Assembly: GCA_017889745.1 (NCBI GenBank)
Contig: JAGGAG010000002.1
Coordinates: 1-44,858, forward strand
DNA: 44,858 bases
Reading direction: 5' to 3'
Origin: Gemmatimonadota bacterium
Lineage (GTDB): Bacteria > Gemmatimonadota > Gemmatimonadetes > Gemmatimonadales > GWC2-71-9
Translations under genes and position numbers: made by a program
Part shown: one piece after another, positions 13,151 through 34,648 of the stretch
How positions within the stretch are numbered: the first letter of the stretch is position 1
Layout of the letters: each line of letters opens with the position of its first letter
Notes under the pieces: model-generated
Told to the model about the DNA's origin: nothing
The model's input: only the letters and a program-made list of their open reading frames with translations
The model's database searches: none

Positions 13151-16100
13151 ATGAACGTGGAGCCGCGGATGAGTGATCCCATCGGGCCCGACCTGCGCCA
13201 GCGCCTCCAGCAAGCCCTGGGGACGCAGTACCATCTCGAACGCGAGCTGGGGCGCGGCGGCATGGGAGTCGTGTTCGAGGCCCGCGACAGTACTCTCGAC
13301 CGCCGCGTGGCCATCAAGGTGGTGCACCCCTCGCTGACCCATCACGACGGGATCGTGCGCCGGTTCCTGGCCGAAGCCCGCATGATCGCGAAGTTCCGTC
13401 ACCCCGGCATCGTGGCAGTGCACGCGGCCGGCGAGGCCGACGGCCTGCTCTACTACGTCATGGACCGGGTCGAGGGCGAAACGCTGCGCGACCGCTTGCG
13501 TCGCGAGCCACGACTCAGCGTGGATGACGCGCGGCGCATCACCGCCGACGTGGCCATGGCGCTCGACGCCGCCGCGCGCGCCGGCCTGGTGCATCGCGAC
13601 GTGAAGCCCGAGAACATCCTCATCGATCATGCCTCGGGCCGGCCCATGCTGGTCGACTTCGGCATCGCCCGGGCCATGGCCGCGGAAGCCGAGGGCGACG
13701 AGCCCACAACCGGACGCGGCGTGGCCCTGGGCACCCCGGCGTACATGAGCCCGGAACAGGCGGCCGGCGAAGACGTGGACGCGCGCAGCGACCTCTATTC
13801 GCTCGGCATCGTCGCCTACGAGATGCTCACCGGTGCGCCACCCTTCACCGGGTCGCATCGCGTCGTCATCTCGCGCCACCTCACCGACCGACCCACGCCG
13901 GTCGAGAAGGCGCGGCCCGACAGTCCCGCCGCACTCTCCGGTGCGGTCATGCGCGCACTCGAGAAGCATCCCGACGAGCGGTGGCAGACCGGCGAGGCGT
14001 TGTACTCGGCGCTGAGTGGCGAGGGCGGCGTCGCCCCGCGCCGCGCGCGGAAGCGGCGCATCGCCGTCCTCGCCGGCGCGACCCTCCTGCTGGTGGGTGC
14101 CGTGGCGGTGAGGGCGATGAACCACGACGGCCCGCCGCGCGGCGTCAACCCGCGGCAGTCGATTCTAGTGCTTCCCTTCGCCAACGTCAGGGCCGATTCC
14201 ACCGGCGAGTGGCTGCGCGACGGGAGCGTCAACATGCTCTCGCTTGCGCTCGGGCAGTGGAATGACCTTCAGGTGATCGGCCCCGAGCGGGTTCATGACC
14301 TGATGGAGGCGGCCCGCCTTCGTGACGACGGCGCCGTCGGGCTCGCCGAGGCGCGGCGCCTGGCGCGCAAGGCGGGCGTGTGGACCGTGGTGCTCGGTGA
14401 ATTCGACCGCAGCGGTGACACCCTGCGTCTCGCCGCGCGGGTCATCGACGTGGCCTCCGGCAGGCAGGTGGACCTGGCCCGCGTCGAAGCGCCCGCCGAC
14501 GACGAAGTGCGCCCGCTGTTCGACCAGCTCGCGGCACAGCTGCTGGACATCTCCGGCGCGCCCCAGGGCGAGCGGGTCGGGCTGGCCCAGGCCACCACTC
14601 GCTCGGTCGAGGCATACCGTGCCTATCTCGCGGGCGATGGTGCGCTCAACCACTGGAACCTGCCCGCCGCCGAGGCTTCGCTCCGCAAGGCGATCGCCGC
14701 GGACTCGACGTTCGGGCTCGCGTACTACAAGCTCTCGGTGACCCGCGGCTGGAGGTACGGCGCCGAGGACTCGGTCGGCGCCAATGCCATCGCGCGGGCC
14801 GAGCTCTATGCCAGCCAGCTGCCGGTGCGCGAGCAGACGATGATCCATGCCTACCGCACCTTCATCCAGGGCGCGAATGCCGACGCGCGCCGGCTCTACG
14901 AGGAGCTGCTGGCCAAGAACCCCGGCGACCCCGACGCCTGGTACGGCCTCGGTGATGCCTGGTTCCACGACGACAAACAACCGCTGCCGATGCGGTTCAC
15001 GGCCTCGATGCGCGCCTTCAAGCGCGCGCTGGCCCTCGATCCCGGCTACGCGCTCGCCTTCGAGCACGTGAACTTCATCCTCGGGCGCGCCTCGCGGCCG
15101 AACCCGCAATGGGTGCTCCTTCCCGGCGACTCGATTGCCTTCGTCTATGGCGACAAGGAGCGGCGCGCCGTCGACACTGCGGCCACGGCCCTGGCGGTGA
15201 AGCGGGCGCGCGGCGAGGCGATCCGGCTTGCGCGCGACTGGGCCACCCTGCAGCCCGCCACGGCCAAGGCACATGAGGCGTTGCTCGCGGCCTTGATCGC
15301 GGCGCAGGACTACGACGGTGCCGGCAATGAGGTGGCGCGCTTCCGGGCCGTGATCCCGACGCACCCCGAGCTGCCGTTCGACGACGCTCGCATTCGGTTT
15401 GCCTCGGGCGATGCGCCGCGCGCCGCCCGCCAGCTGGGCGTATCGATCGATTCGCTCACCCCCGAGGACCTGCGGTCGATCTCGGGCGCCACCGACGCGG
15501 CCGAACGGCTCACCATCGCAGCCAACGTGCTCGCCTACCAGGGCAACGTCGGCCAGGCGGCAAAGCTCATCGACCTCGCCAATCGCGTGCGCTTCGGCGA
15601 TCCCGTCCCGGGCACGCCGGAGGCGAACGAACGGGATGCGTGGAACTGGCGGATGCAGGGGGAGCTCTACGCCGCGGTCGGCGTTCCCACCGCCGGCATG
15701 CGGCGCATCTGGCAGAGTGCAGCCGAGGCGAGCCGCTCCGTGCCTCCCGAGAAGCGCGCCAAGCTGCTTGCCGCCGGCGGCGCCGCGGCGGTGGGCCTCC
15801 TCACGTCGGCCACTCCGGATGAATCCGCCGTCACGGAGATGCAGGCCATGGGCGGCGCGGTGCCGGCCAAGGAAGTGCGGGCGCTCATGGCCCTCGAGCA
15901 CAACGACCAGGCCGCTGCGAGGAAGGCGCTGGCCGAGCCCGACTCGATGACGATGTCGATGAAGGGCCCGTCCTACCTCGTGTTCCGCCGGCCGCTCGCA
16001 GCCCAGGCGTACTACCTCCTCGGCGACTACGAGCATGCGCTCAAGCTGCTCGAGGGATTCGACGGCCCCGAGCTCTACGCCGACCAGTTCGACATGCGCT

Positions 16101-16282
16101 GGGGGATCGTCGGGCGTGTGCGCCTCCTCCGCGGTGCCGTCCTCGAGAAGCTCGGCCGCCCCGACGACGCCCGCGAGCAGTACCGGCTGGCACTGGCACA
16201 GTGGACCCAGGCCGACCCTGACTTGCAGGTGTTTGTGCAGGAGGCGCAGCAGAAGCTGGCGCAGCTGCAGGAACGGAGTTGA
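13151..16282 (+). CDS. membrane Ser/Thr protein kinase with large extracytoplasmic/TPR-like C-terminal region
   Basis: GRGGMGVVFEA, AIK, HRDVKPENIL, DFGIARA, SPE. One TM segment (IAVLAGATLLLVGAVAV). About 700 aa of helical-repeat-rich C-terminus. An alternative ATG lies at 13169. Confidence 0.9.
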   Translation: MNVEPRMSDPIGPDLRQRLQQALGTQYHLERELGRGGMGVVFEARDSTLDRRVAIKVVHPSLTHHDGIVRRFLAEARMIAKFRHPGIVAVHAAGEADGLLYYVMDRVEGETLRDRLRREPRLSVDDARRITADVAMALDAAARAGLVHRDVKPENILIDHASGRPMLVDFGIARAMAAEAEGDEPTTGRGVALGTPAYMSPEQAAGEDVDARSDLYSLGIVAYEMLTGAPPFTGSHRVVISRHLTDRPTPVEKARPDSPAALSGAVMRALEKHPDERWQTGEALYSALSGEGGVAPRRARKRRIAVLAGATLLLVGAVAVRAMNHDGPPRGVNPRQSILVLPFANVRADSTGEWLRDGSVNMLSLALGQWNDLQVIGPERVHDLMEAARLRDDGAVGLAEARRLARKAGVWTVVLGEFDRSGDTLRLAARVIDVASGRQVDLARVEAPADDEVRPLFDQLAAQLLDISGAPQGERVGLAQATTRSVEAYRAYLAGDGALNHWNLPAAEASLRKAIAADSTFGLAYYKLSVTRGWRYGAEDSVGANAIARAELYASQLPVREQTMIHAYRTFIQGANADARRLYEELLAKNPGDPDAWYGLGDAWFHDDKQPLPMRFTASMRAFKRALALDPGYALAFEHVNFILGRASRPNPQWVLLPGDSIAFVYGDKERRAVDTAATALAVKRARGEAIRLARDWATLQPATAKAHEALLAALIAAQDYDGAGNEVARFRAVIPTHPELPFDDARIRFASGDAPRAARQLGVSIDSLTPEDLRSISGATDAAERLTIAANVLAYQGNVGQAAKLIDLANRVRFGDPVPGTPEANERDAWNWRMQGELYAAVGVPTAGMRRIWQSAAEASRSVPPEKRAKLLAAGGAAAVGLLTSATPDESAVTEMQAMGGAVPAKEVRALMALEHNDQAAARKALAEPDSMTMSMKGPSYLVFRRPLAAQAYYLLGDYEHALKLLEGFDGPELYADQFDMRWGIVGRVRLLRGAVLEKLGRPDDAREQYRLALAQWTQADPDLQVFVQEAQQKLAQLQERS

Positions 16283-16283
16283 G

Positions 16284-16350
16284 AACGACGTCAACGGTGA
16301 ACGGTAAACGGGGCTCCCGTTCACTGTTTACCGCTTACCGTTTACTGTTG
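16284..16350. repeat. heptad-repeat palindrome (GTRAACR)n, copy 1
   Basis: Left arm ...GTCAACG GTGAACG GTAAACG GGG, loop ct, right arm CCCGTTCAC TGTTTAC CGCTTAC CGTTTAC TG. It starts 2 nt after the kinase stop and ends 4 nt before rnpB. Confidence 0.85.
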
Positions 16351-16354
16351 TGAT

Positions 16355-16753
16355 GGGTCGGACGTGATGGTCGCGGGTGCTTCGGCACTCGAGGAAAGTC
16401 CGAGCTCCATCGGGTAGACTGCCAGGTAACGCCTGGGCGCCGCAAGGCGACGGACAGGGCAACAGAAAGCAAACCGCCCGGCGCAAGCGCAAGCGAGTGA
16501 CGGGTAAGGGTGAAATGGTGGGGTAAGAGCCCACCGCGCTGCCGGCAACGGGAGCGGCACGGTAACCCCCAGTCGGAGCAAGGCCAAATAAGCGGCGAGG
16601 TGTGACCCACACCGCCCCCCGTCCGGTCCCCTCGGGGATTCGGGCGGTAGCCGCGGGTAGGCTGCTCGAGGCGACCGGCGACGATCGTCCCAGACAGATG
16701 ACCATCCCCAGGGCTCACGCCAGGGGAACAGAACTCGGCTTACGGTCCGACCC
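16355..16753 (+). ncRNA. rnpB: RNase P RNA, bacterial type A
   Basis: GAGGAAAGTCCG at 16391-16402. GGGTGAAATGGTGGGGTAAGAGCCCACC block near 16508. ACAGAACTCGGCTTAC at 16728-16743. P1 pairing of GGGTCGGAC (16355-16363) with GTCCGACCC (16745-16753). Ends are approximate to +/-5 nt. Confidence 0.93.
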
Positions 16754-16755
16754 AC

Positions 16756-16797
16756 GGCCGCCTCCGGCACTCGTTGCCGGAGGCGGCCGTCCTTTGT
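16756..16797 (+). terminator. intrinsic terminator after rnpB
   Basis: Perfect 14-bp stem GGCCGCCTCCGGCA (16756-16769) / TGCCGGAGGCGGCC (16775-16788) with loop ctcgt, followed by GTCCTTTGT. Confidence 0.65.
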
Positions 16798-17153: not shown

Positions 17154-17939
17154 ATGCAGGCTCGCATACTGATGGCCGGCGCCCTGTTCTCCGGCGCCCT
17201 GATGCTCCCCGCTCCCCCCACTGCCAGTATCACCGCCCGGTACAAGGTGGCGCAGCGGATCCAGCAGGACGTGGACGCGACCGCCCTGGGCGGCGGCAAG
17301 CAGGGCTTCGTAGTCAAGACCACGAGCTACGTGCTGCTCACGCTTACCGACACCGCTGGCGGACGCAGCGTGAAGGTGCTCGTCGACTCGATCCACGGCG
17401 ACTCGCTGCCGCCCGGTGCGCCGGCCGACATGCTGACCAAGGCCACCGGCGTCACGATTACCGGCTTCGTGGACCCGAAAGGCAAGCTGAGCAACGTGAA
17501 GGCCAGCAGCGAGGCCGGCGGGCTGCAATTGAGCAGCCTTGTGCAGCAGCTCCTGCCGCCCCTTCGCTCGCCCCTCAAGGTGGGCGATGCCTGGACCGAC
17601 ACCACCGAGACCTCGAACGGCGTCGCGTCGGGCACCATGACCACGCGCACCGTGACCAACTTCAAGGTGACCGGCACCGAGGCTCGCGGCGCGGTCAAGG
17701 CGAGCAAGGTCGATGGCGCGTTCAGCTCCTCGATCGCGGGGTCGCAGGAAACCCCGGGCGGGTCGGCCGACATCGAGGGCACCGGCACCGGCACATCGAG
17801 CTACTTCGTCGCACCCGACGGCAAGCTGCTCGGCGGCACCTCGAACACCACCAGCAACCTGAACGTCACCCTCGCGGCGCAGGGCGCCACACTGCCGCTG
17901 GTGCTCAGTCAGTCCGTGGAAATCACGCCGCTCCCCTGA
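17154..17939 (+). CDS. secreted hypothetical protein, Thr/Ser/Gly-rich (paralog A)
   Basis: ATG at 17154 with GAGGA at 17145-17149. Signal peptide. Shares the segment GDAWTDTTETS...VTG with the next gene. Confidence 0.7.
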   Translation: MQARILMAGALFSGALMLPAPPTASITARYKVAQRIQQDVDATALGGGKQGFVVKTTSYVLLTLTDTAGGRSVKVLVDSIHGDSLPPGAPADMLTKATGVTITGFVDPKGKLSNVKASSEAGGLQLSSLVQQLLPPLRSPLKVGDAWTDTTETSNGVASGTMTTRTVTNFKVTGTEARGAVKASKVDGAFSSSIAGSQETPGGSADIEGTGTGTSSYFVAPDGKLLGGTSNTTSNLNVTLAAQGATLPLVLSQSVEITPLP

Positions 17940-17944
17940 CCTTC

Positions 17945-18817
17945 ATGCGGCGCAGGGTACTCCTTGCCGCGTGGCTCGCAGCGATCGCCTGCGGGCCATC
18001 CGGTACGGGTGGGACAAAGCAACCGGCGCCCGCGCCCGCCAAGCCCGCGGCGCCAGCCCCCAACCAGCCTTCCGGCGCCGCAGGCGCTGCTGTCACGCTG
18101 GCGCGCTATGCTTCGAGCGACGCGCGCTACGCCATCGACCGCGCTGACACAATCAGCTTCCAATATCCCAACGGCCTCCAGACGCAGGTGGTCGAGCGCA
18201 GCATGTGGATCCGGCTGATCATCGGTCCGGGCGCGGCCACGGCACCGATCAACATCACGCTCGACTCGATTCGCGTGGGTACCGTTCCCCGCGATTCGCT
18301 CATTTCCGCCGACGGGCTGCGCTGGACCGGCACCTTGGAGGATGGCGTACGGCTCGGCACCCTCATACCATCGTCGCATCACGCTCTGGCGGAACAGCTC
18401 GTGGGCAATGCCTTCCGCGACCTGATCGCCACGCTACCACCGGGCGGAGCGCGGGCGGGCGCCGGCTGGACCGACACGACGTCGACCACGGAGCAGGTGG
18501 CGGGCAGCGAGGTGCCTGTAACGGTGATCCGCGCCGCTCGCGCAACGGGACGGATCGGGACGCCGGCAACGGTTCTGCTCGAGAGTTCCTCGTCGGTGAC
18601 TGGAGGCGGCAAGAGCCAGCGTTTCGGCGAGGAGATCGGCATCACGCTGAGTGGCACGCGCACGCGCGCACACCACGTGTCGATCGCCGGCCAGGTCCTG
18701 GAGGCCGAGGGACGCGACTCGCTCGCCATCTCGTTCGACCTGCCGTCGGTGGGCCAGACCGTACCGGCCACCCAGCGCGGGCGTCTCAGCATCCAGCGGA
18801 TCCAGGGTCCCCGCTGA
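17945..18817 (+). CDS. hypothetical lipoprotein (paralog B)
   Basis: MRRRVLLAAWLAAIACG lipobox, then a Pro/Ala linker. GAGWTDTTSTT...ATG is colinear with paralog A. Confidence 0.7.
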   Translation: MRRRVLLAAWLAAIACGPSGTGGTKQPAPAPAKPAAPAPNQPSGAAGAAVTLARYASSDARYAIDRADTISFQYPNGLQTQVVERSMWIRLIIGPGAATAPINITLDSIRVGTVPRDSLISADGLRWTGTLEDGVRLGTLIPSSHHALAEQLVGNAFRDLIATLPPGGARAGAGWTDTTSTTEQVAGSEVPVTVIRAARATGRIGTPATVLLESSSSVTGGGKSQRFGEEIGITLSGTRTRAHHVSIAGQVLEAEGRDSLAISFDLPSVGQTVPATQRGRLSIQRIQGPR

Positions 18818-20258: not shown

Positions 20259-20915
20259 ATGCGGACCAGGATCCTGATGCTGGCCCTTGGCACTCTCATG
20301 ACATCGACCGCGCAGGCGCAATCTCGCTGGTTCGCGTCGGTGCAGGGTGGCTACAGCGTGAGCACGTCCACTGCCGAGAGCTTCCCCGGCGGCGGGGCAT
20401 TCGGCTCGAGTGCGTTCATCGGGGCGCAGCTGAGCCCCCTGTTCACCCTGGGCGCCGAGGGCGGATTCTACGGGGTGGAGAACACCGCCACCGAAACCAG
20501 CGTCGACTGCCCGCCGCCCTCGGTGCCGGGGTCACTGGGCTGCACCGAGACCGACCGCGCGGAACTTGACTGGATCCAGCTGGGCGGCACGCTCCGCGTG
20601 GGCCCGAACGAAGGCAGCGTCAGGCCCTATGGCGCGCTCGGTGTGGCGGTCTATTTCGGGCAACGTGACACGGAGAGCACCATCACTGACGGGTCCACCG
20701 GCACCGTGTACCCCGGCTTTCCACTCAGCAGCAACGTAGACCGGACGGCGGTCGGCGCGAGCTTCGGCGGCGGGCTTGACTGGGTACCAAGGAACAGCTC
20801 CTGGAGTGTCGGGATCTCGGCGCGGCTGCATGCCCTCACCGGCGGCGACGAGAACGGCGAATACGGCGGGGATACGTTCGTGACGGTGCTGGCAGGGGTG
20901 GGGTATCGCTGGTAA
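20259..20915 (+). CDS. small outer-membrane beta-barrel protein
   Basis: Signal peptide MRTRILMLALGTLMTSTAQAQ. Gly/Ser/Thr-rich alternating pattern. Ends ...VLAGVGYRW with an aromatic C-terminus. Confidence 0.75.
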   Translation: MRTRILMLALGTLMTSTAQAQSRWFASVQGGYSVSTSTAESFPGGGAFGSSAFIGAQLSPLFTLGAEGGFYGVENTATETSVDCPPPSVPGSLGCTETDRAELDWIQLGGTLRVGPNEGSVRPYGALGVAVYFGQRDTESTITDGSTGTVYPGFPLSSNVDRTAVGASFGGGLDWVPRNSSWSVGISARLHALTGGDENGEYGGDTFVTVLAGVGYRW

Positions 20916-20918
20916 GGC

Positions 20919-20996
20919 GTGAACAGCAAACGGTGAACGGTGAACGGTGAACGGTGAACGGGAACAGACACCCCATTTACCGTTCACCGTTTACGC
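20919..20996. repeat. heptad-repeat palindrome (GTRAACR)n, copy 2, asymmetric
   Basis: GTGAACA GCAAACG, then four perfect tandem GTGAACG, then GG aacagacacccc ATTTAC CGTTCAC CGTTTAC GC. It fills the gap between convergent stops at 20915 (+) and 21000 (-). Confidence 0.85.
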
Positions 20997-20999
20997 AGC

Positions 21000-22112
21000 T
21001 CAGTCGACCAGCCTCAACGGCATCACCAGCGCCAGGAAGCTCGCCGGATCATCCCAGCCCACCGGCTCGCAAGTGGCGGCGCGCTCGGGCGCCTTGAAGG
21101 TCATCCGCACCTCGTCGGTGGGGATGTACTTGAGCACCTCGAGCATATAGGCGGCGTTGAAGCCGATCTCCAGCGTGTCCCCCTCGTACGTAACCGTGAC
21201 CTCCTCCTGGGCTTCGCCCAGGTCGGGGGTCTGCACCGACAGCTTGCAGGAACCGTTGGCGAAGGCCATCCGGATCCGGTGCGTCTGGTCGCTGGCCACG
21301 ATGCTCATGCGCCGGAGCGCCGAGGTGATGGCACCCTTGTCGGCGGTCATCACCTTGTCGTTCTCGCGCGGGATGACCTGCTCGTAGTTCGGGTACGGCC
21401 CCTCGATCAGCCGGGTAAAGACCTGGGTCGTGGGCGACCGGAACCCGAGATGATTCTCGCTCCGCGCCACCTCGATCTCGTCCTCGGCGGAGAACAGCTT
21501 CCTGATCTGCTCCAGTGCCTTGGGCGGCACGATCAGGTCGGCCTGGGCCCCGCCCGTCGTCGCAGTGGGAACGTCCATCCTGGCCAGCCTGTGGCCGTTC
21601 GTGGCCACCATCCGCATGCGGTCGGGACGCAGCTCCCAGAGCACGCCGTTCAGGATCGGACGGCTTTCCTCGGTGCTGGCCGCGAAGGCCACGTGGGTGA
21701 TGAGCTTCTGAAGGTTGCCGGCGGTCGCCTTCCAGCCGCCATCGAACTTGACCGCCGGAAAAGCCGGGAACTCATCCTTCGGCAGGCCCAGGAGCCGGAA
21801 CTTCGACCGGCCGCATTCGATGGTAACCCGCTGCTCACCCGACGCAGTGATCCTGATCGACGCATTGGGCAGCTCGCGCACGATCTCGGCGAGTTTCCTC
21901 GCTGGAACGGTGATCGACCCTTCCTGGTCGACCGATGCCGGCACGATGGTGCTGACAGCGATGTCGAGATCCGTTCCCGACAGCCTGACACCATCGTGGA
22001 TGGCCTCCACCAGGATGTTCGAGAGCACCGGCAGCGTGGTCTTGGTGGGGACACTGCCCGCCACAGCCTGCAGGCCTTCCTGGAACTGCTCGCGAGTGAT
22101 CGTGAACTTCAT
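21000..22112 (-). CDS. dnaN: DNA polymerase III beta sliding clamp
   Basis: ORF trimmed to MKFTITREQFQEGLQAVAGSVPTKTTLPVLSNILVEA (cat at 22110-22112, GAGGGG upstream). 370 aa. Lies directly downstream of dnaA. Confidence 0.97.
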   Translation of the reverse strand: MKFTITREQFQEGLQAVAGSVPTKTTLPVLSNILVEAIHDGVRLSGTDLDIAVSTIVPASVDQEGSITVPARKLAEIVRELPNASIRITASGEQRVTIECGRSKFRLLGLPKDEFPAFPAVKFDGGWKATAGNLQKLITHVAFAASTEESRPILNGVLWELRPDRMRMVATNGHRLARMDVPTATTGGAQADLIVPPKALEQIRKLFSAEDEIEVARSENHLGFRSPTTQVFTRLIEGPYPNYEQVIPRENDKVMTADKGAITSALRRMSIVASDQTHRIRMAFANGSCKLSVQTPDLGEAQEEVTVTYEGDTLEIGFNAAYMLEVLKYIPTDEVRMTFKAPERAATCEPVGWDDPASFLALVMPLRLVD

Positions 22113-22152
22113 TGCGCCCCTCATGCGTTCCGGAGAAGTACCTACCAGAACC

Positions 22153-22182
22153 TGTATATAAGAATGTAGCAGTAGTAGTAGA
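22153..22182. other. AT-rich island in the dnaA-dnaN spacer (candidate DNA-unwinding element or dnaN promoter)
   Basis: tgtatataagaatgtagcagtagtagtaga is strikingly AT-rich for this DNA and contains gta/gca trinucleotide repeats. Confidence 0.35.
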
Positions 22183-22433
22183 GGGTATGGAGATGTTGAG
22201 GAACCCTCTGATCTCCTCACCCCGGTACGACTTGCCTCACCCGCTTCGGTCAGTCTCGTTGTGGGGCATGCGGACATCTCGCCGCGTCAGCAACATCTCT
22301 TGCCGCTATTCAAGACTTTCAACGAACAACCAGTCAACATCGGGATAACCGTCCGGAAAAACTCCCGAGCCATCGTTTGCTCGCACGTGATCGATTCATG
22401 GTGATCGAGCGGTGCGACGACTGCGACACCAAT

Positions 22434-23822
22434 TTACGTCTGCGGCTGCAGCTCCATACGCGCGAGCTCCACCTTTTCGCGGAACCCGCGATCTCGCGAC
22501 ATCAACCGAGCCACCTTGTCGACACTGTGAATGACAGTGCTGTGATCCCTGCCACCGAATGCCTGGCCGATCTCGACCAGCTGCATCTGCAGGAGGTCGC
22601 GAGCGAGGAACATCGCGATCTGCCGCGGAACAGTGAGCGTCTTGATCCGTGCCTTGGACCGCAGCCCTTCCGGCGTGACACCCCAGCGACGGGCAACGAC
22701 CTCCTGCACCTTGTTGATGGTGGGGAGGGCCTTGGTGGGTGCTCCGGTGTCGTCGGACGGCCGGATGCGGTCGGCCAGTGCCTCACGGGCCAGTTCGATC
22801 GAGACTTCCTTGTGCTTGAGCGACGCATACAGGAGGAGCTTGATGATGCATCCCTCCAACTCGCGCACGTTCGACCGGACGTGCTCAGCGATGAACCGGA
22901 GCACGTCGTCCGGGATCGCCATTTCCAGGTGATCCTGCTCCGCCTTCTTCCGCAGGATCGCGATCCGGTGCTCCAGGTCGGGCTGGCCGATGTCCGCCAC
23001 CATGCCCCACTCGAACCGGCTCACCAATCGGGCCTCGAGCCCCGGCAGCTCCTTCGGCGGCCGGTCGGAGGTCAGCACGATCTGCTTGTTGGCCTCGTAC
23101 AGCGCGTTGAAGGTGTGAAAGAACTCCTCCTGCGTCATTTCCTTGCCTTCGAGGAAATGCACGTCGTCCACGAGGAAGAGGTCGACATCCGCCCGGTAGC
23201 GCCGGCGGAACTCCGGCATGGTCCGGCTGTGGATGCTCTCGATGACTTCGTTGATGAACTGCTCCGCGCCCACGTACAGCACGCGCGTATCGGGCAGGCG
23301 CCCGATCACGGTGTGTGCAATCGCCTGCATGAGGTGCGTCTTTCCGAGTCCCGTCGCACCGTAAATGAAGAGCGGATTGTACGTCTTGCCGGGTGATTCA
23401 CTGACGGCATGAGCTGCGGCTGCGGCGAGTTCGTTGGACTTGCCGATGACGAACGTCTCGAAGGTGTAGCGCTCGTTGAGCGGCTGGGCGCTTGGATTGA
23501 CCTTGGCGGCAGGCGCAGCGGCGCTCGGCGGCGGCGCCACGAAGAGGTCCATCTGCGGGCGCTTGGTGCGCTCTTCCTGCACCTTGAAGACCACGCTAAC
23601 TGGTTGGCCTGCGGCCTTTTCGGCCAGGCGCGACAACACGGCCGCGTGCTTCGACTCGTTCCACTGCACCGCGAACTGGTCAGGTGCGCCCACGATCAGC
23701 GTTCCGTTCTCAAGTGAGATCGGCGCGGCTGGTTCCAGCCACGTGCGGATCGTCTGTTCAGAAAGCTCCCGGAGCGCATCGTCGAGCAAGCGCGTCCAGA
23801 GATCTTTCGCGGAAAGTTGCAT
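22434..23822 (-). CDS. dnaA: chromosomal replication initiator DnaA
   Basis: ORF trimmed to MQLSAKDLWTRLLDDAL (cat at 23820-23822). Walker A IYGATGLGKTHLMQAI. C-terminal DNA-binding domain (RQIAMFLARDLL...IGQAFGGRDHSTVIHS). Confidence 0.97.
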   Translation of the reverse strand: MQLSAKDLWTRLLDDALRELSEQTIRTWLEPAAPISLENGTLIVGAPDQFAVQWNESKHAAVLSRLAEKAAGQPVSVVFKVQEERTKRPQMDLFVAPPPSAAAPAAKVNPSAQPLNERYTFETFVIGKSNELAAAAAHAVSESPGKTYNPLFIYGATGLGKTHLMQAIAHTVIGRLPDTRVLYVGAEQFINEVIESIHSRTMPEFRRRYRADVDLFLVDDVHFLEGKEMTQEEFFHTFNALYEANKQIVLTSDRPPKELPGLEARLVSRFEWGMVADIGQPDLEHRIAILRKKAEQDHLEMAIPDDVLRFIAEHVRSNVRELEGCIIKLLLYASLKHKEVSIELAREALADRIRPSDDTGAPTKALPTINKVQEVVARRWGVTPEGLRSKARIKTLTVPRQIAMFLARDLLQMQLVEIGQAFGGRDHSTVIHSVDKVARLMSRDRGFREKVELARMELQPQT

Positions 23823-23867
23823 CGAAATCCAGGCTACAGCGGCGGAGGGACGATCCAAGGGCGCGAG

Positions 23868-23896
23868 ATATTACGGGTCGCGTGTGGATAAGTCAA
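23868..23896 (-). promoter_or_regulatory. candidate sigma70 promoter of dnaA
   Basis: The minus strand reads TTGACT (plus 23891-23896), a 17-nt spacer, then TAATAT (plus 23868-23873), about 45 nt upstream of the dnaA ATG. Confidence 0.55.
23883..23891 (-). promoter_or_regulatory. perfect DnaA box TTATCCACA
   Basis: Plus strand tgtggataa at 23883-23891. It overlaps the last base of the -35 and the spacer of the candidate dnaA promoter. Confidence 0.75.
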
Positions 23897-24151: not shown

Positions 24152-24469
24152 TTGGCGCGTGCAGCCGACATCCGGCGGTGCCTGGCCAAGGGTCGGCGCC
24201 GCCGGTCCGCGTTTCTCGACCTGATCTGGATTGACAATGCACTGGGCCATCCGCGCATGGGATTGATCGTTCCCCGATTCCAGGCGACTGCGGTGGCCCG
24301 CAATCGTCTCAGGCGACGGCTCAAGGAAGTGTGGCGTCGCGAGGTGCAGCCGGTTCAGCCGGCGTTCGATCTCCTGGTACGGGCCCGTCGCGAGGCCTAC
24401 AGCGCGTCGTACGATGCATTGCGCGCCGAGATCCTGGGGTGGCGGGACGCCACGTGCCCCGCCCGGTGA
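24152..24469 (+). CDS. rnpA: RNase P protein component
   Basis: Basic protein directly after rpmH with the RNR-like segment ARNRLRRRLKE. The TTG start at 24152 is the first ATG/GTG/TTG in frame. In-frame upstream codons read FPRSRRL, so the true N-terminus may lie slightly upstream. Confidence 0.85.
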   Translation: MARAADIRRCLAKGRRRRSAFLDLIWIDNALGHPRMGLIVPRFQATAVARNRLRRRLKEVWRREVQPVQPAFDLLVRARREAYSASYDALRAEILGWRDATCPAR

Positions 24470-24472
24470 ATC

Positions 24473-24700
24473 ATGGACCTGCGTCTCCTTCCGCGCCGTT
24501 TGCTCATGGCGGCGGTGCGTGCATACCAGCTGGTGCTCTCCCCGCTGCTACCTCCGAGTTGCCGCTTCACCCCGTCGTGCTCGGCGTACGCTCACGAGGC
24601 GCTCATGCGGCACGGCGCCGCGCGCGGCTCCTGGCTCGCCGCGCGACGGCTGGCACGCTGTCATCCCTGGAATCCGGGCGGCTACGACCCGGTTCCGTGA
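24473..24700 (+). CDS. yidD: membrane protein insertion efficiency factor YidD
   Basis: [31 protein letters not shown]...[14 protein letters not shown]. Confidence 0.93.
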
Positions 24701-24727
24701 ATTCAAGAAAGGCTCGAATCGCGAGTC

Positions 24728-26458
24728 ATGGATAGACGCACGCTGTGGGCGGTCCTGCTGATGATGGCGATCTTCTTCGCGCCCACGTTCTTCATGAAGA
24801 AGCCGGCCCGGCCTGTCACGCCGCCCGTTCCCCAGGCGAGCGATACGGCTCCGGGTGCCGCGGCGGCTACGGCGGCACCCGTGGTGCCGGCGTCCCCTGC
24901 AGTCGGCGGGGTGGCATCGGCCGGGGCAACCGGTCCCGCTGACACCATCACCGTCACCACACCGCTGGCGCGCTATGGGGTCAGCACCCGCGGCGGCGTG
25001 CTGACGTCGCTGGAGCTCGAGCACTACAAGTCCACTGCGCCCGCCACCAAGGGCACCCCTGCCGAACTGGTGCGCCCGGGCTCGCCGCTGCTCGGGCTCG
25101 TGGTCGTCACCGGTGCGGACACGCTGCACCTCGATCAGTGGGACTTCCGGGCCGACCCGGCCAGCCTCAACGTTACCGGCGAGCCGGCATCGCTGACGCT
25201 TACGTCGGACCAGGCGGGACACTCGGTGCGGATCCGGTACACCTTCTCGCCTACCGACTATCAGGTGGGTGTGTCGGGCTCCGTTACCGGCATCGGCGCC
25301 GCGGGCGGCCAGCTGGTGCTGGGGCTGGGTACCGGGCTCGCGAACACCGAGGCCGATTCGGTCGAGAATTTCCGCGCGGCGGCGCTCGTTACCTACGGCG
25401 GCAGCGCCGAGCGACACGACTTGGCGAAACTCACGGCGGGCGAGACGGTGACGTTCAGCGGGCCCTATGCGTGGACCGCGCTCAAGTCGAAGTACTTCGT
25501 CAGCGCGGTGCTGGCGTTCGATTCGACCGGCGGACGCCTGAGTGGCGTCACCGCGACTCCCGCCCCGGCCGCCGGCAAGCACCCCACGGCGGCGGCAACC
25601 CAGGTGCGCATGCCGATCGCCACCTCGGGCGAGTTCTCCTACACGCTCTACGCCGGGCCGATGGAGTACGACCGGCTCAAGCGCATCGGCCACGACTTCG
25701 ACGACGTGAATCCGTACGGGCTGCCGGGTTTCCGCACGCTGATCCGGTTCTTTGCGGCGCCGGTGCGGTGGCTGCTCGTGTGGATGCATGATTCGCTGCA
25801 CCTGGGCTACGGCTTCGTGCTGATTGCCTTTGGCCTGCTGGTCCGCCTGCTGCTGTGGCCGCTCAACCAGAAGGCCATGCGCGCCAATACCGCGCTTCAG
25901 GCGCTGCAGCCGCAGCTGCAGAGGATCCAGGAGCAGTACAAGCAGGACCCGCCGCAGCTGCAGAAGGAGATGTTCCGGCTCTACAAGGAGAATGGGGTCA
26001 ACCCGCTGGGCGGCTGCTGGCCCATGCTCCTGCCGATGCCGGTGCTCTTCGCACTCTTCTTCGTGCTGGGCAACTCGATCGAACTGCGCGGGGTGCCGTT
26101 CCTCTGGTTTCCCGACCTGGCGCGGCCGGATCCGTACTTCATCATCCCGATCCTGAGCGGCATCTCGATGTTCGGGCTGACCAAGGTCGGGCAGATGGGC
26201 ATCCAGCACACGGCGCAGACGAAGATGCAGGCGCAGATGATGACCTACATGATGCCGGTCATGATCACCATCTTCGGCTTCAACTTCGCGTCGGGGCTCA
26301 ACCTGTACTGGACGGTGAGCAACCTGGCCAGCATTCCGCAGCAGTGGCTGATCGCGCGGGAGCGGATGAAGCTGCAGAAGGCGGAGGTGAAGGCGTTCGT
26401 CGAGGTGAAGACGAAGCCCGATGACAGCGTGACGCGGAGCGGCAAGAAGAAGCGCTAG
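24728..26458 (+). CDS. yidC: membrane protein insertase YidC
   Basis: 576 aa. N-terminal TM, large periplasmic domain, conserved C-terminal core (LLLWPLNQKAMRANTALQALQPQLQRIQEQYK...GCWPMLLPMPVLFALF), basic tail. Confidence 0.96.
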   Translation: MDRRTLWAVLLMMAIFFAPTFFMKKPARPVTPPVPQASDTAPGAAAATAAPVVPASPAVGGVASAGATGPADTITVTTPLARYGVSTRGGVLTSLELEHYKSTAPATKGTPAELVRPGSPLLGLVVVTGADTLHLDQWDFRADPASLNVTGEPASLTLTSDQAGHSVRIRYTFSPTDYQVGVSGSVTGIGAAGGQLVLGLGTGLANTEADSVENFRAAALVTYGGSAERHDLAKLTAGETVTFSGPYAWTALKSKYFVSAVLAFDSTGGRLSGVTATPAPAAGKHPTAAATQVRMPIATSGEFSYTLYAGPMEYDRLKRIGHDFDDVNPYGLPGFRTLIRFFAAPVRWLLVWMHDSLHLGYGFVLIAFGLLVRLLLWPLNQKAMRANTALQALQPQLQRIQEQYKQDPPQLQKEMFRLYKENGVNPLGGCWPMLLPMPVLFALFFVLGNSIELRGVPFLWFPDLARPDPYFIIPILSGISMFGLTKVGQMGIQHTAQTKMQAQMMTYMMPVMITIFGFNFASGLNLYWTVSNLASIPQQWLIARERMKLQKAEVKAFVEVKTKPDDSVTRSGKKKR

Positions 26459-26464
26459 GCGGGT

Positions 26465-26665
26465 CTATCGCTTGTGGGAGCCGTCGCAGAAGGGGCGGGT
26501 CTTCGAGAGCCCGCAGCCGCAGAGCTTCACCTGGCCCGGGTGCTTGGCCGGCGGCGGCTCGATCGGGTCACCGGCGTTGTCGAAGATGAGAACCGGCCCC
26601 TCGACGATGATGGGGCCGGAGGGCTTCCAGGTGATTCGTATCGGTGTGTCTGGCGAGTCTGACAT
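26465..26665 (-). CDS. CDGSH iron-sulfur domain-containing protein
   Basis: 66 aa ending CGCGLSKTRPFCDGSHKR (CDGSH 2Fe-2S signature). Confidence 0.85.
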   Translation of the reverse strand: MSDSPDTPIRITWKPSGPIIVEGPVLIFDNAGDPIEPPPAKHPGQVKLCGCGLSKTRPFCDGSHKR

Positions 26666-26673
26666 TGGGGCAA

Positions 26674-26742
26674 CGTAAACAGTGAACGGTGAACGGTAAA
26701 CGGGACTGGTTCCCGTTCACTGTTCACCGTTTACGGTTTACG
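26674..26742. repeat. heptad-repeat palindrome (GTRAACR)n, copy 3, 4+4 heptads
   Basis: CGTAAAC AGTGAAC GGTGAAC GGTAAAC GGGA ctggt TCCCGTTCAC TGTTCAC CGTTTAC GGTTTACG. The right arm contains the stop of 26738..27682. The left arm ends 8 nt before the CDGSH start. Confidence 0.88.
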
Positions 26743-27682
26743 CTGTTCTGACTCCCCCCGCCCTCTCCTCCGCCTCCCTCGCCTCATCCGCTCCCGCCAG
26801 CAGCGCCGCTGCGATGCCGCGCTCCCCCACCAGCGCCTCCGTGAGCCGGTAACCCATGTAGTACCCGGCCCGCTCGGGGATCACGCGGCCGGCCACCAGG
26901 CGTGCCGCCGGGCTCATGCCTCCCGAGAGATACCGCAGCCTGAGCCCGAGCCCCGCCCGGTCGATGTCGGGCGCCGCGGCGCGCCGCAGGAAGGCCTCCA
27001 GCTCGCGCAGCCGTACGTATAACCGGCGCGGATAGCCGAAGTAGTCGGACGCGCGGAACCCCGGTGCCACCGCCTGTGCCGCGTGTACCGCCAGGCCCTC
27101 GTTGACCAGCAATTCCCGCAGGGTGGCCCGGCTGCCTACTTCCCAGAAGTCGTAGTAGCCCCGCGATTCGCGCACGATGCGACTGATGTCGCTGCGGCTT
27201 CCGGCCGCGGTGTAGCGGACGGTGTGCGCCAGCTCATGCCCGATCCAGAGCGGCAGCAGCTCGGGGCCCAGCCCCAGCCCGTAGGTCTCGGGATTGACCC
27301 GCCCGGTGAAGTGCTCCAGGCAGATGAACGCCACACCCCGTCCGTCGACGACCAGCTCGCCGGCGTTCGCGGCGCCCATCCCCACCATCAGCACCACGTC
27401 GGTCGGCTGCTGGATGCCCAGGACGTCCACCGCGCGCGTGATGGCTTCCTCGGCGAGGCGCTCGAGGTCGACCGACTCGATCAGCGCGTAGAGGTCGCGC
27501 CGGTCGGCCCGGAGCGCCGCCTGGATCACCTCGACCGATGGCGGACTGTCGGGATCGAGGACGTAGTTACGCCAGTAGGCGTCGAGGAGCGGACGATGTG
27601 CGGAGTGGAAGGATCGGTAGGCGGCCTCGCTGTCCGGCGCGTTGATCAGCGCGAGAAATTCCGGCACGAGGTTGATGAGCAC
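26738..27682 (-). CDS. putative Zn-dependent protease (DUF2268-like, HExxH)
   Basis: 314 aa. WIGHELAHTVRY metalloprotease motif. GTG start at 27682. The overall pattern resembles DUF2268 predicted proteases; this assignment is from memory. Confidence 0.7.
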   Translation of the reverse strand: MLINLVPEFLALINAPDSEAAYRSFHSAHRPLLDAYWRNYVLDPDSPPSVEVIQAALRADRRDLYALIESVDLERLAEEAITRAVDVLGIQQPTDVVLMVGMGAANAGELVVDGRGVAFICLEHFTGRVNPETYGLGLGPELLPLWIGHELAHTVRYTAAGSRSDISRIVRESRGYYDFWEVGSRATLRELLVNEGLAVHAAQAVAPGFRASDYFGYPRRLYVRLRELEAFLRRAAAPDIDRAGLGLRLRYLSGGMSPAARLVAGRVIPERAGYYMGYRLTEALVGERGIAAALLAGADEAREAEERAGGVRTA

Positions 27683-27695
27683 CAGACAGAATAAG

Positions 27696-27769
27696 GCGTG
27701 AACGGTAAACGGTAAAGTGTGAACTGGAGTTAACGGCCCAGTTCACCTTTCACTGTTCACCGTTCACGC
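27696..27769. repeat. heptad-repeat palindrome (GTRAACR)n, copy 4, 4+4 heptads
   Basis: GCGTGAAC GGTAAAC GGTAAAG TGTGAAC TGG agttaacgg CCAGTTCAC CTTTCAC TGTTCAC CGTTCACGC. It lies between the rhomboid stop (27777) and the start of 26738..27682. Confidence 0.88.
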
Positions 27770-27776
27770 TCTTCAG

Positions 27777-28634
27777 CTAGTGCAGCTGCTGCCGCTTCTG
27801 CTTTGCGATGTCGTCCAGGAAGCGCCGCTCGTCGGGCGTCAGGCTCGCCAGCCCCTCGGCGCTGATCTTGTCGAGCACCCGGTCCATTTCACGGGCCACC
27901 GGATCGGCATCGCCGCTGCGCGATGGAGCCGCCGCGGTAGCGGCCGCCGCCGCCACGCGGCGGGGCCGCTCGGCCTCCGCGGCGCCGGGCTGCACCATGA
28001 CCGGGCGCTGCACCTGCCGCCGGGGAGCGCTGCTCTCGGGGCCGAACGACTGCAGCCGGAAGAACAGGTAGCCGAAGAGGGCTCCGCCCAGGTGCGCCTC
28101 ATACGCGACGTTGGATCCGCCCCGCAGGAACGGCAGCGCCATGATCGCGTTGAAGCCCACCAGCAGGATGGCGAAGGTGCGCGCCTTCATCGGGATGGGG
28201 ATCGGAATGACGATCATCTCGGCGTCGGGCCAGAGGATCGCCAGGGCCACGGCCAGCCCGAGCACGCTTCCCGATGCGCCGACGAACGGCGCCACCGCAG
28301 CAAACCTGGAAAGGAGCAGCGCGAAGAAAGCCGCGCCTACGCCGCAGTAGATGTAGTAGAGGAGGAACTTCTCGCCGCCGAGGCGCTGTTCCACGGCCGA
28401 TCCCAGCATCCAGAGGCCGAGCGAGTTGGCCAGGAGGTGGAGCAGGCCGGCGTGGACGAACATGTACGTCACGAACGTCCATGGCCGGCTGAGCGCGTTG
28501 GCGGGATCGAAGGCGAGCGCCCGGAACGCCCCCTCGGAAGTGAAGACGGTCTCCAGCAGCAACAGCACCACCGCGTTTGCGATGATGAGCCGTGTTACCC
28601 ACGGAGTCATCCGGGGATGCGAGATCGCCTGCAT
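27777..28634 (-). CDS. rhomboid family intramembrane serine protease with cytoplasmic C-terminal extension
   Basis: Catalytic GASGSVLGL and HLGGALFGYLF. Six TM-like segments. About 90-aa hydrophilic tail ending DERRFLDDIAKQKRQQLH. Confidence 0.88.
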   Translation of the reverse strand: MQAISHPRMTPWVTRLIIANAVVLLLLETVFTSEGAFRALAFDPANALSRPWTFVTYMFVHAGLLHLLANSLGLWMLGSAVEQRLGGEKFLLYYIYCGVGAAFFALLLSRFAAVAPFVGASGSVLGLAVALAILWPDAEMIVIPIPIPMKARTFAILLVGFNAIMALPFLRGGSNVAYEAHLGGALFGYLFFRLQSFGPESSAPRRQVQRPVMVQPGAAEAERPRRVAAAAATAAAPSRSGDADPVAREMDRVLDKISAEGLASLTPDERRFLDDIAKQKRQQLH

Positions 28635-34619: not shown

Positions 34620-34648
34620 CGGGGAAGCGGTAAGCGGTGAGCGAGGAA

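Follow-up and report, generated by a model that had tools for sequence, protein, structure and literature searches.

Heptad-built, REP-like palindromes at gene ends in the chromosomal origin region of an uncultured Gemmatimonadales bacterium and in other phyla

Intergenic heptamer repeats have been reported phylum by phylum for 35 years, and their function and origin are without consensus. STRR heptamers have long been known in cyanobacteria, and heptameric repeats are known to be over-represented in many bacteria. The GGGAATC repeats of Xanthomonas (GGGGAYT in Nostoc) are intergenic, with mostly four units per array, and each genome has 70-75 pairs in convergent (inverted) orientation, which are potential stem-loops. 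They favour the gaps between open reading frames (ORFs) of the same direction, are under-represented between divergent ORFs and within genes, lie at most 50 bp from a stop codon or overlap it, vary in length and sequence among close species, and were taken to form G-quadruplexes (Rehm et al. 2015, PMC4692102). The TAACTGA repeats of Beggiatoaceae, cyanobacteria and Bacteroidetes are intergenic, occur in 2-6 copies and have a unit with stop codons. The word is present in distant phyla with no known route of transfer, some copies overlap ORF ends, and the arrays, nearly all of them direct repeats with one inverted case, lie mostly just upstream of starts, where a role in translation initiation was proposed (MacGregor 2015, PMC4679880). 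In Geobacter metallireducens, heptanucleotide families of ~16-49 copies have four or five units (GGACCGG; MTYCTGA); arrays of the second family are depicted in opposite-strand pairs, some copies are intragenic, and the arrays were proposed to be regulator binding sites or regulatory RNAs, neither of which was tested (Aklujkar et al. 2009, PMC2700814). Here, four palindromes built of tandem GTRAACR heptads, designated E1 to E4, are described in a stretch of 44,858 nt (contig JAGGAG010000002.1 of assembly GCA_017889745.1, positions 1 to 44,858; the window), which is the chromosomal origin region (dnaA-dnaN-yidC-rnpB) of an uncultured Gemmatimonadales bacterium known only from metagenomes. An earlier, sequence-only reading of the window had called the 7-nt periodicity unusual. 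It is not without precedent, as heptamer arrays had already been described in Xanthomonas, Nostoc/Calothrix, Beggiatoaceae and Geobacter, and the Xanthomonas GGGAATC repeats are the closest described relatives of the elements.

The four palindromes are present where the earlier reading had placed them and share one design, namely two to six tandem GTRAACR heptads, a loop of 5-15 nt that starts with GG and ends with CC, and complementary YGTTYAC heptads. The double-heptad pattern GTRAACRGTRAACR (at most 1 mismatch) has 21 matches in the window, all within E1-E4, against 0.06 expected from shuffles, and single GTRAACR heptads number 32 against 9.6 expected. E1 (16284-16350), between the stop codon of a Ser/Thr kinase-TPR gene and rnpB, has its left arm at 16290-16310, loop at 16311-16317 and right arm at 16318-16345, and is kept at the same site in a relative, L101 (handles of this kind denote loci of other genomes). 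E2 (20919-20996) lies between the convergent gene for an outer membrane protein (OMP) beta-barrel and dnaN, with six heptads on the left (20919-20960) and three on the right (20974-20994). E3 (26671-26745, minus strand), between the DUF2268 and CDGSH genes, consists of 4+4 heptads with arms at 26675-26702 and 26714-26741, and E4 (27696-27769, minus strand), between the rhomboid stop codon and the DUF2268 GTG start, has degenerate inner heptads. Long imperfect RNA hairpins of 25-30 bp, as had been proposed, are predicted for all four, with folding energies of -31.2 (E1, z -3.9), about -40 (E2, either strand), -47.7 (E3, sense strand, z -10.7) and -50.2 kcal/mol (E4), and z-scores ranging from -3.9 to -10.7. 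E3 and E4, which part the three consecutive minus-strand genes rhomboid, DUF2268 and CDGSH, are the two strongest palindromes of the entire window according to an inverted-repeat finder. The elements form AT-richer islands, with 51-54% GC in a genome of ~68% GC.

Once the strands are correctly assigned, proximity to stop codons, also claimed before, is borne out for each copy, all four being no more than 8 nt from a stop. E1 begins 1-7 nt past the kinase TGA (16280-16282), and E2 is 3 nt from the OMP TAA (20913-20915) and 3-5 nt from the dnaN stop codon on the opposite strand (21000-21002). The outermost heptad of E3 holds the DUF2268 TAA (26738-26740, minus strand), and 8 nt separate E4 from the stop of the rhomboid gene on the minus strand (27777-27779). 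E2, E3 and E4 have stops in all six reading frames, and E1 in five. The pseudo-peptides that the elements were said to add to ORF calls are real.

The motif is not confined to this locus, since many contigs, genomes and phyla carry the heptad palindrome. One scan of 185,579 species genomes with a two-armed version of the motif gave more than 119 loci, which is a lower bound. Among the matches listed, ~70 belong to Gemmatimonadales or Gemmatimonadota, and the others to Chloroflexota, Burkholderiales/Betaproteobacteria, Bacteroidota, Verrucomicrobiota, Armatimonadota, Desulfobacteraceae and further groups, with 34-73% GC; a few of those listed are ordinary A/T-flanked terminators matched by chance (e.g. 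L008, L066 and L108). Some matched loci are on long-read contigs of 0.1-3.5 Mb, one is in a cultured Chitinophagaceae isolate, and several contigs per genome bear copies, not origins alone. In viral contigs 3 matches were found, and in plasmid records none. As judged from 78 Gemmatimonadales copies, the commonest build is 4+4 heptads (30 of the 78), followed by 4+3 and 3+4, the median loop is 19 nt, and the outward flank on both sides is GC and then four T-rich positions (43-58% T against a background of 17%). Copies in Chloroflexota prefer GTGAACA and have longer, variable arrays of up to 14-16 units. No Rfam family matches the elements, and at a permissive threshold all matches were sub-threshold ones to precursor hairpins of eukaryotic miRNAs, due to generic hairpin shape. 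The motif was absent from the literature searched. Neither Rfam nor the literature search nor the plasmid records gave a name, and the family is unnamed, as had been supposed. The elements are thus an unnamed family of heptad-built, REP-like palindromes in several phyla.

The position of the elements relative to genes was assessed in 100 Gemmatimonadales copies, for which genes were called with a simple GC3-based caller that reproduces the genes of the window. A called gene was present on both sides of 81 copies, 10 were at contig edges, and 9 were miscalled as intragenic because ORF starts had been extended to a GTG within a heptad; the window copies are all intergenic, as are essentially all copies in related loci. 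The 81 copies comprise 52 between same-strand, 22 between convergent and 7 between divergent genes, against 224, 66 and 64, respectively, in the intergenic background. This is an approximately two-fold depletion between divergent genes (7/81 against 18%; chi-square ~7, 2 d.f., computed from the counts). Elements lie a median of 5 nt from the facing stop codon, and of 96 facing ORFs, 33 terminate at -4, -11 or -18 from the array start, i.e. at the TGA or TAA of the first, second or third heptad. As 7 mod 3 = 1, three heptads give stops in all three frames, and the opposite arm does likewise on the other strand. The same stop-proximal rule is seen in the Chloroflexota, Burkholderiales and Bacteroidota copies. 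Further copies lie 10-22 nt 3' of tRNA genes (L010, L094 and L095), between tRNA-Arg and tRNA-Pro within a tRNA cluster (L022 and L085) and 13 nt upstream of tRNA-Ser (L057); those 3' of tRNA genes link the elements to transcript ends and not only to translation stops. The flanking genes are ordinary housekeeping genes. The comparison with REP/BIME-type extragenic palindromes made at the outset is supported.

The earlier reading had also noted the lack of a U-tract, and indeed none of E1-E4 was flagged by a terminator scan (at least 5 T in 8). In this genome, strong U-tracts appear not to be the norm, since the genuine rnpB terminator, a perfect 16-bp GC-rich hairpin at 16754-16790 (-37.3 kcal/mol), has a weak tail, CCTTTGTG, so that weak tails look normal here. 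This tail resembles the GC-TKTT flanks of the elements. Orthologous copies are found inside the spc ribosomal-protein operon, between rplE and rpsN (L047, L044 and L087) and between secY and adk (L083 and L041), with a Shine-Dalgarno sequence and start codon 14-23 nt beyond the copy, and read-through must therefore be possible. Of the roles in termination or 3'-end protection suggested previously, a role at the 3' end of the transcript fits the positional data, but the copies in the spc operon and in a tRNA cluster argue against obligatory full termination.

Signs of a constraint on pairing were found at the E4 site. In a sense-strand alignment of seven orthologues, 3 of 29 predicted pairs are changed on both sides with pairing kept (GC to AU, GC to CG and UA to AU), and the one-sided changes give G·U on the sense strand and not A·C. 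Family-wide, same-strand contexts have 80 sense-strand G·U against 52 A·C (p = 0.018). The arms of orthologues are 92-94% identical (6-8% different), whereas the loops diverge freely and are often unrecognisable. Taken together, the compensatory changes and the sense-strand G·U would point to a hairpin formed in RNA. A more conserved 3' arm, hinted at by E1 and E4, was rejected, as the two arms have 11/133 and 10/161 differences in six orthologous pairs.

The arms may in addition serve as promoter elements. The right arm of E1 contains a putative plus-strand rnpB promoter (16320-16348), with -35 TTCACT at 16320-16325, a 17-nt spacer and -10 TACTGT at 16343-16348, with 5 nt between it and the rnpB 5' end given by Rfam (16354); both hexamers are identical in L101. 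On the minus strand, E3 offers -35 TTTACC (26700-26695), N17, -10 TACGTT (26677-26672) and N6 before the CDGSH ATG, and E4 has -35 TTTACC (27716-27711), N17, -10 TATTCT (27693-27688) and N5 before the DUF2268 GTG. In the clade of the window, the E4 arm takes the place of the predicted DUF2268 -35 box. Family-wide, TTYACN in the arm followed after 16-18 nt by TAnnnT is present on 19 of 51 start-facing sides and 4 of 72 stop-facing sides (p ~1e-5, a comparison whose compositional bias is taken up below). The idea of a combined terminator and promoter thus receives some support from this geometry and from the E1/rnpB arrangement. Element-less DUF2268 orthologues (dozens among L134-L203) mostly have a conserved TTGCAT-N17-TATCGT-N5-GTG right at the start codon. 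This is a predicted sigma-70-type promoter of a leaderless mRNA, and it suggests that leaderless mRNAs may be common in this Gemmatimonadales clade.

Our reading, held with about even confidence, is that the elements provide REP-like punctuation chiefly at the RNA level, attenuating transcription or stabilising 3' ends, and in some places also act as promoters. Transcripts of the upstream gene would carry the element at their 3' end. The TGA or TAA in tandem GTRAACR heptads, shifted by one frame per repeat, would release ribosomes within three heptads, and the opposite arm would do so on the other strand. The arms would then pair into a hairpin of 25-30 bp that tolerates G·U, and this hairpin may attenuate read-through, shield the upstream mRNA or tRNA from 3' exonucleases, or both, and would not be an obligatory full terminator. 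Where the next gene needs a promoter, the outward arm, in which YGTTYAC repeats read as TTYACN, could serve as the -35 box, with the -10 at or just beyond the edge of the element, and many arm-derived promoters appear to drive leaderless mRNAs. The GTRAACR family would belong to a wider set of 4+4 palindromes with varied heptad words and fast turnover by copying or conversion.

Several points weigh against this reading. None of the four window elements meets the standard U-tract rule, and across the family the T-enriched stretch beyond the flanking GC is only 4 nt. A stem of 28-31 bp is far longer than termination needs, and neither the 7-nt unit nor the usual four units per arm are accounted for. 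At the R/Y positions the arms vary independently (Fisher p = 0.30, 0.74 and 1.0); covariation there, looked for in three ways and not found, was accordingly dropped as support for the hairpin. The G·U bias lies in the base frequencies of the arms, A being less frequent in the 5' arm than T is in the 3' arm, and given the independence of the arms, the G·U excess could be due to strand-biased mutation and not to selection on RNA. As the stop-facing sides are coding and GC-rich, the promoter enrichment is confounded by composition. Finally, the gene calls in related loci come from a crude caller.

The turnover of the elements was followed in eighty metagenome loci encoding DUF2268 orthologues (67-100% identity), and presence, absence and type of element were found to vary at orthologous sites. 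The slot downstream of the gene, in relatives 93-100% identical in the protein, is occupied by GTRAACR 4+4 (L124, L127 and L128), by GTGAGCG 2+2 (L133), by one leftover heptad (L125 and L126) or by nothing (L129 and L130). More distant relatives have palindromes of GTGAGCG, GTGAAGR, GGCTATT, GCTAAAG, GCTRTGR, GAGTCRG or CTCGACY in this slot, and others ordinary GC-rich hairpins or nothing. The upstream slot varies likewise, and includes a 4+4 GAGTCNN element in L132. The occurrence of a GTRAACR element, another heptad palindrome or a GC-rich hairpin at both sites indicates the same functional slot. In the window, a solo array of a sister heptad of the GTRAGCG type (GAAGCGG TAAGCGG TGAGCG, 34622-34643, plus strand), with three units and no right arm, lies in the 29 nt that separate two convergent genes, and could be the relic of an element or one that is just arising; the same heptad builds full palindromes in relatives L133, L136 and L142. 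At the left edge of the element in L127 (1520-1545) and L128 (3934-3960), the final 13 nt of the DUF2268 gene, stop codon included, occur as a tandem duplication, reading GAACGGCGTAG... then GAACTGCATAA..., which may be a trace of junction remodelling. Another long palindrome, GTCACCCTGAGCGAAGCGAAGGGG...CCCCTTCGCTTCGCTCAGGGTGAC, is present in the downstream slot of L153, L186 and L190 and looks like a separate dispersed repeat family.

Differences at the same site next to a nearly identical protein would also be expected if the elements were mainly selfish, non-autonomous mobile DNA (REPIN-, MITE- or miniature foldback-like), for which the gene-end position and the stops make insertions harmless and any host function is secondary. 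This is a minority possibility. It draws on a subfamily with a C-rich loop, GGCCCCGCCCnnCACCCC, represented by ~15 copies (including those in L006, L012, L025, L027, L038, L047 and L093), only two pairs of which are orthologous, so that the loop recurs at at least 11 non-orthologous sites in many genomes; it draws also on the four different heptad words found on one contig (L147), on the same heptad across phyla, and on stops in all frames, which are expected of a tolerated insertion. The recurring loops could, however, stem either from copying to new sites or from gene conversion among dispersed copies. Of 12 same-strand contexts, 10 have the C-rich strand as the sense strand, and an element of perfect symmetry would have no use for such a polarity. 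The flanks extend the palindrome (AAAGC...GCTTT) and show no target-site duplication. No mobilising gene was found: a tblastn search with E. coli RayT against 1.24 Mb (~8 kb per sampled copy) gave no RAYT homologue (best E = 2.2), although a gene present once per genome would probably escape a search of this extent, and neither a transposase nor an enriched gene family was detected in the flanks, where the neighbours are ordinary housekeeping genes, both of these being weak tests. Copies are rare in viral contigs and absent from the plasmid records, as noted above, and at orthologous sites they have been retained, their arms conserved and compensatory changes present.

Local replication slippage and template switching, by which the elements would be largely neutral heptamer microsatellites formed in place, like cyanobacterial STRRs, is improbable. 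Such an origin agrees with the general excess of heptameric repeats in bacteria, with the many different heptad words, with the long variable arrays of 10-16 units in Chloroflexota, Desulfobacteraceae and other copies, and with the periods of tandem arrays in 315 kb of the DUF2268-orthologue loci, which were not chosen for repeats. There, period 7 is the commonest, with 24 arrays against 1 in shuffles, followed by periods 6 (11), 8 (5) and 9 (2), and is hence the dominant but not the sole period. Against slippage, the arms in Gemmatimonadales are tightly centred on four units and not broadly spread, homologous loops occur at unrelated sites, the same heptad word with the same R/Y wobble positions occurs across phyla, and most heptad words start with GTGA or GTAA and hence carry a stop codon. 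Arrays or palindromes with 8- or 9-nt units (e.g. GAGAGGACG/CCTCTCCGT) were observed upstream of the DUF2268 gene in L142, L146, L148, L153, L188, L198 and L201.

That the elements are DNA binding sites for a multimeric protein with a 7-bp register (a nucleoid protein, a roadblock terminator protein or an origin-linked factor) is very improbable: the flanking of dnaA and dnaN by all four copies, the fixed number (four) of identical tandem units, suggestive of an oligomer, the independent variation of the arms, as of separate sites, the likeness to a parS half-site (GTGAAACA against GTGAACA) and the AT-richer composition speak for it, but unrelated heptad words in the same architecture in one genome would need several matching proteins, which makes the protein reading one particular 7-bp word that had been suggested unlikely, successive sites 7 bp apart would not lie on the same face of the helix, copies are scattered over many contigs and genomes and not confined to origins, no match to the 16-bp parS palindrome TGTTTCACGTGAAACA was found in the window with up to 3 mismatches, and it is on the sense strand alone that the G·U bias and the compensatory changes are seen.

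If the elements are punctuation elements acting mainly as RNA, they would be signposts of transcript boundaries in a phylum for which transcript data are nearly lacking. They also create false ORFs and shift predicted starts and stops in metagenome-assembled Gemmatimonadales and Chloroflexota genomes. A broader proposal, which we regard as unlikely but put forward tentatively, is that 4x4 heptad palindromes are a general cross-phylum punctuation cassette that stops translation in six frames, folds the transcript end and restarts transcription outward, with dedicated machinery that builds or copies 7-nt units, usually four per arm; the Xanthomonas, Geobacter and STRR arrays would then be the same phenomenon built on other heptad words.

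The genes that surround the elements in the window are as follows. On the plus strand are the kinase-TPR gene (13151-16282), rnpB for class A RNase P RNA (16354-16758; Rfam 274.6 bits), the OMP beta-barrel gene (20259-20915) and rnpA-yidD-yidC (24152-26458). The minus strand encodes dnaN (21000-22277), dnaA (22434-23858), the CDGSH gene (26465-26665, start at 26665), the DUF2268 gene (26738-27682, GTG start at 27682) and the rhomboid gene (27777-28634). The convergent yidC/CDGSH junction (26458-26465) has 6 nt between the stops and no hairpin, unlike the neighbouring junctions that bear elements. A perfect DnaA box, TTATCCACA, at 23883-23891 overlaps a sigma-70-like dnaA promoter, TTGACT-17-TAATAT (23896-23868), which ends 9 nt upstream of the dnaA start. 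Between rnpB and a transglycosylase-domain gene are two ORFs without a Pfam match (17154-17939, 261 aa; 17945-18817, 290 aa). The segment from yidC to rhomboid is also present, identical, on a 5.8-kb JGI contig, and the closest genome loci to the window are those of Gemmatimonadales metagenome-assembled genomes.

Among known systems, several can be set aside. A parS/ParB or origin-specific site was considered given the arrangement around dnaA and dnaN and the half-site likeness, and was rejected on the lack of a match and the scatter of copies given above; the GTRAACR heptad is one A short of the parS half-site, and the half-sites are in the opposite order. Integron attC sites and LexA boxes share only AAC/GTT cores with the elements, and the housekeeping context and the spacing do not fit. 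The heptamer direct repeats of PhoP/SARP type have a period of 11 bp and not 7. The arms could pass for the terminal inverted repeats of a MITE, but the flanks are palindromic and not directly duplicated, and no transposase was found in them. Like intrinsic terminators, the elements have a stable stem-loop just past a stop codon or tRNA 3' end and a T-enriched flank, and could serve both directions between convergent genes. Unlike terminators, they have a stem 2-3 times longer with ~52% GC and a short, interrupted T-tract, and have copies within essential operons.

The resemblance to the REP, BIME and REPIN sequences of Enterobacteria and Pseudomonas is that of short, imperfect, dispersed extragenic palindromes at gene ends and between the cistrons of operons. 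REPs stabilise upstream mRNA and affect translation when near a stop codon, and REPINs are inverted doublets that form one long hairpin. In contrast to REPs, the arms of the elements described here are internally periodic (7-nt tandem units), and there is no 5' tetranucleotide of the GTAG type, the GC flank running straight into GTRAAC. REP sequences are lineage-specific, whereas the GTRAACR word is found in several phyla.

With respect to the heptamer repeats, the Geobacter arrays have a similar number of units but different heptad words. Like TAACTGA, the GTRAACR unit carries stops and spans phyla, but its arrays are inverted and lie at gene ends. The likeness is greatest to the Xanthomonas repeats, which are also tandem 7-nt arrays of about four units, often inverted, stop-proximal and rare between divergent ORFs. 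However, GTRAACR/YGTTYAC has no GGG runs, unlike the G-rich Xanthomonas heptad; GGGAATC holds no stop codon; and the phylum is another. As the GTRAACR family lacks G-tracts, quadruplexes cannot explain the shared four-unit design or be the general explanation of such repeats. The family is therefore a clean test case, with a four-unit, inverted, stop-proximal design like that in Xanthomonas but free of G-tracts, and it suggests testable properties, namely stops in every frame, a sense-strand RNA hairpin and arms able to donate a -35 box.

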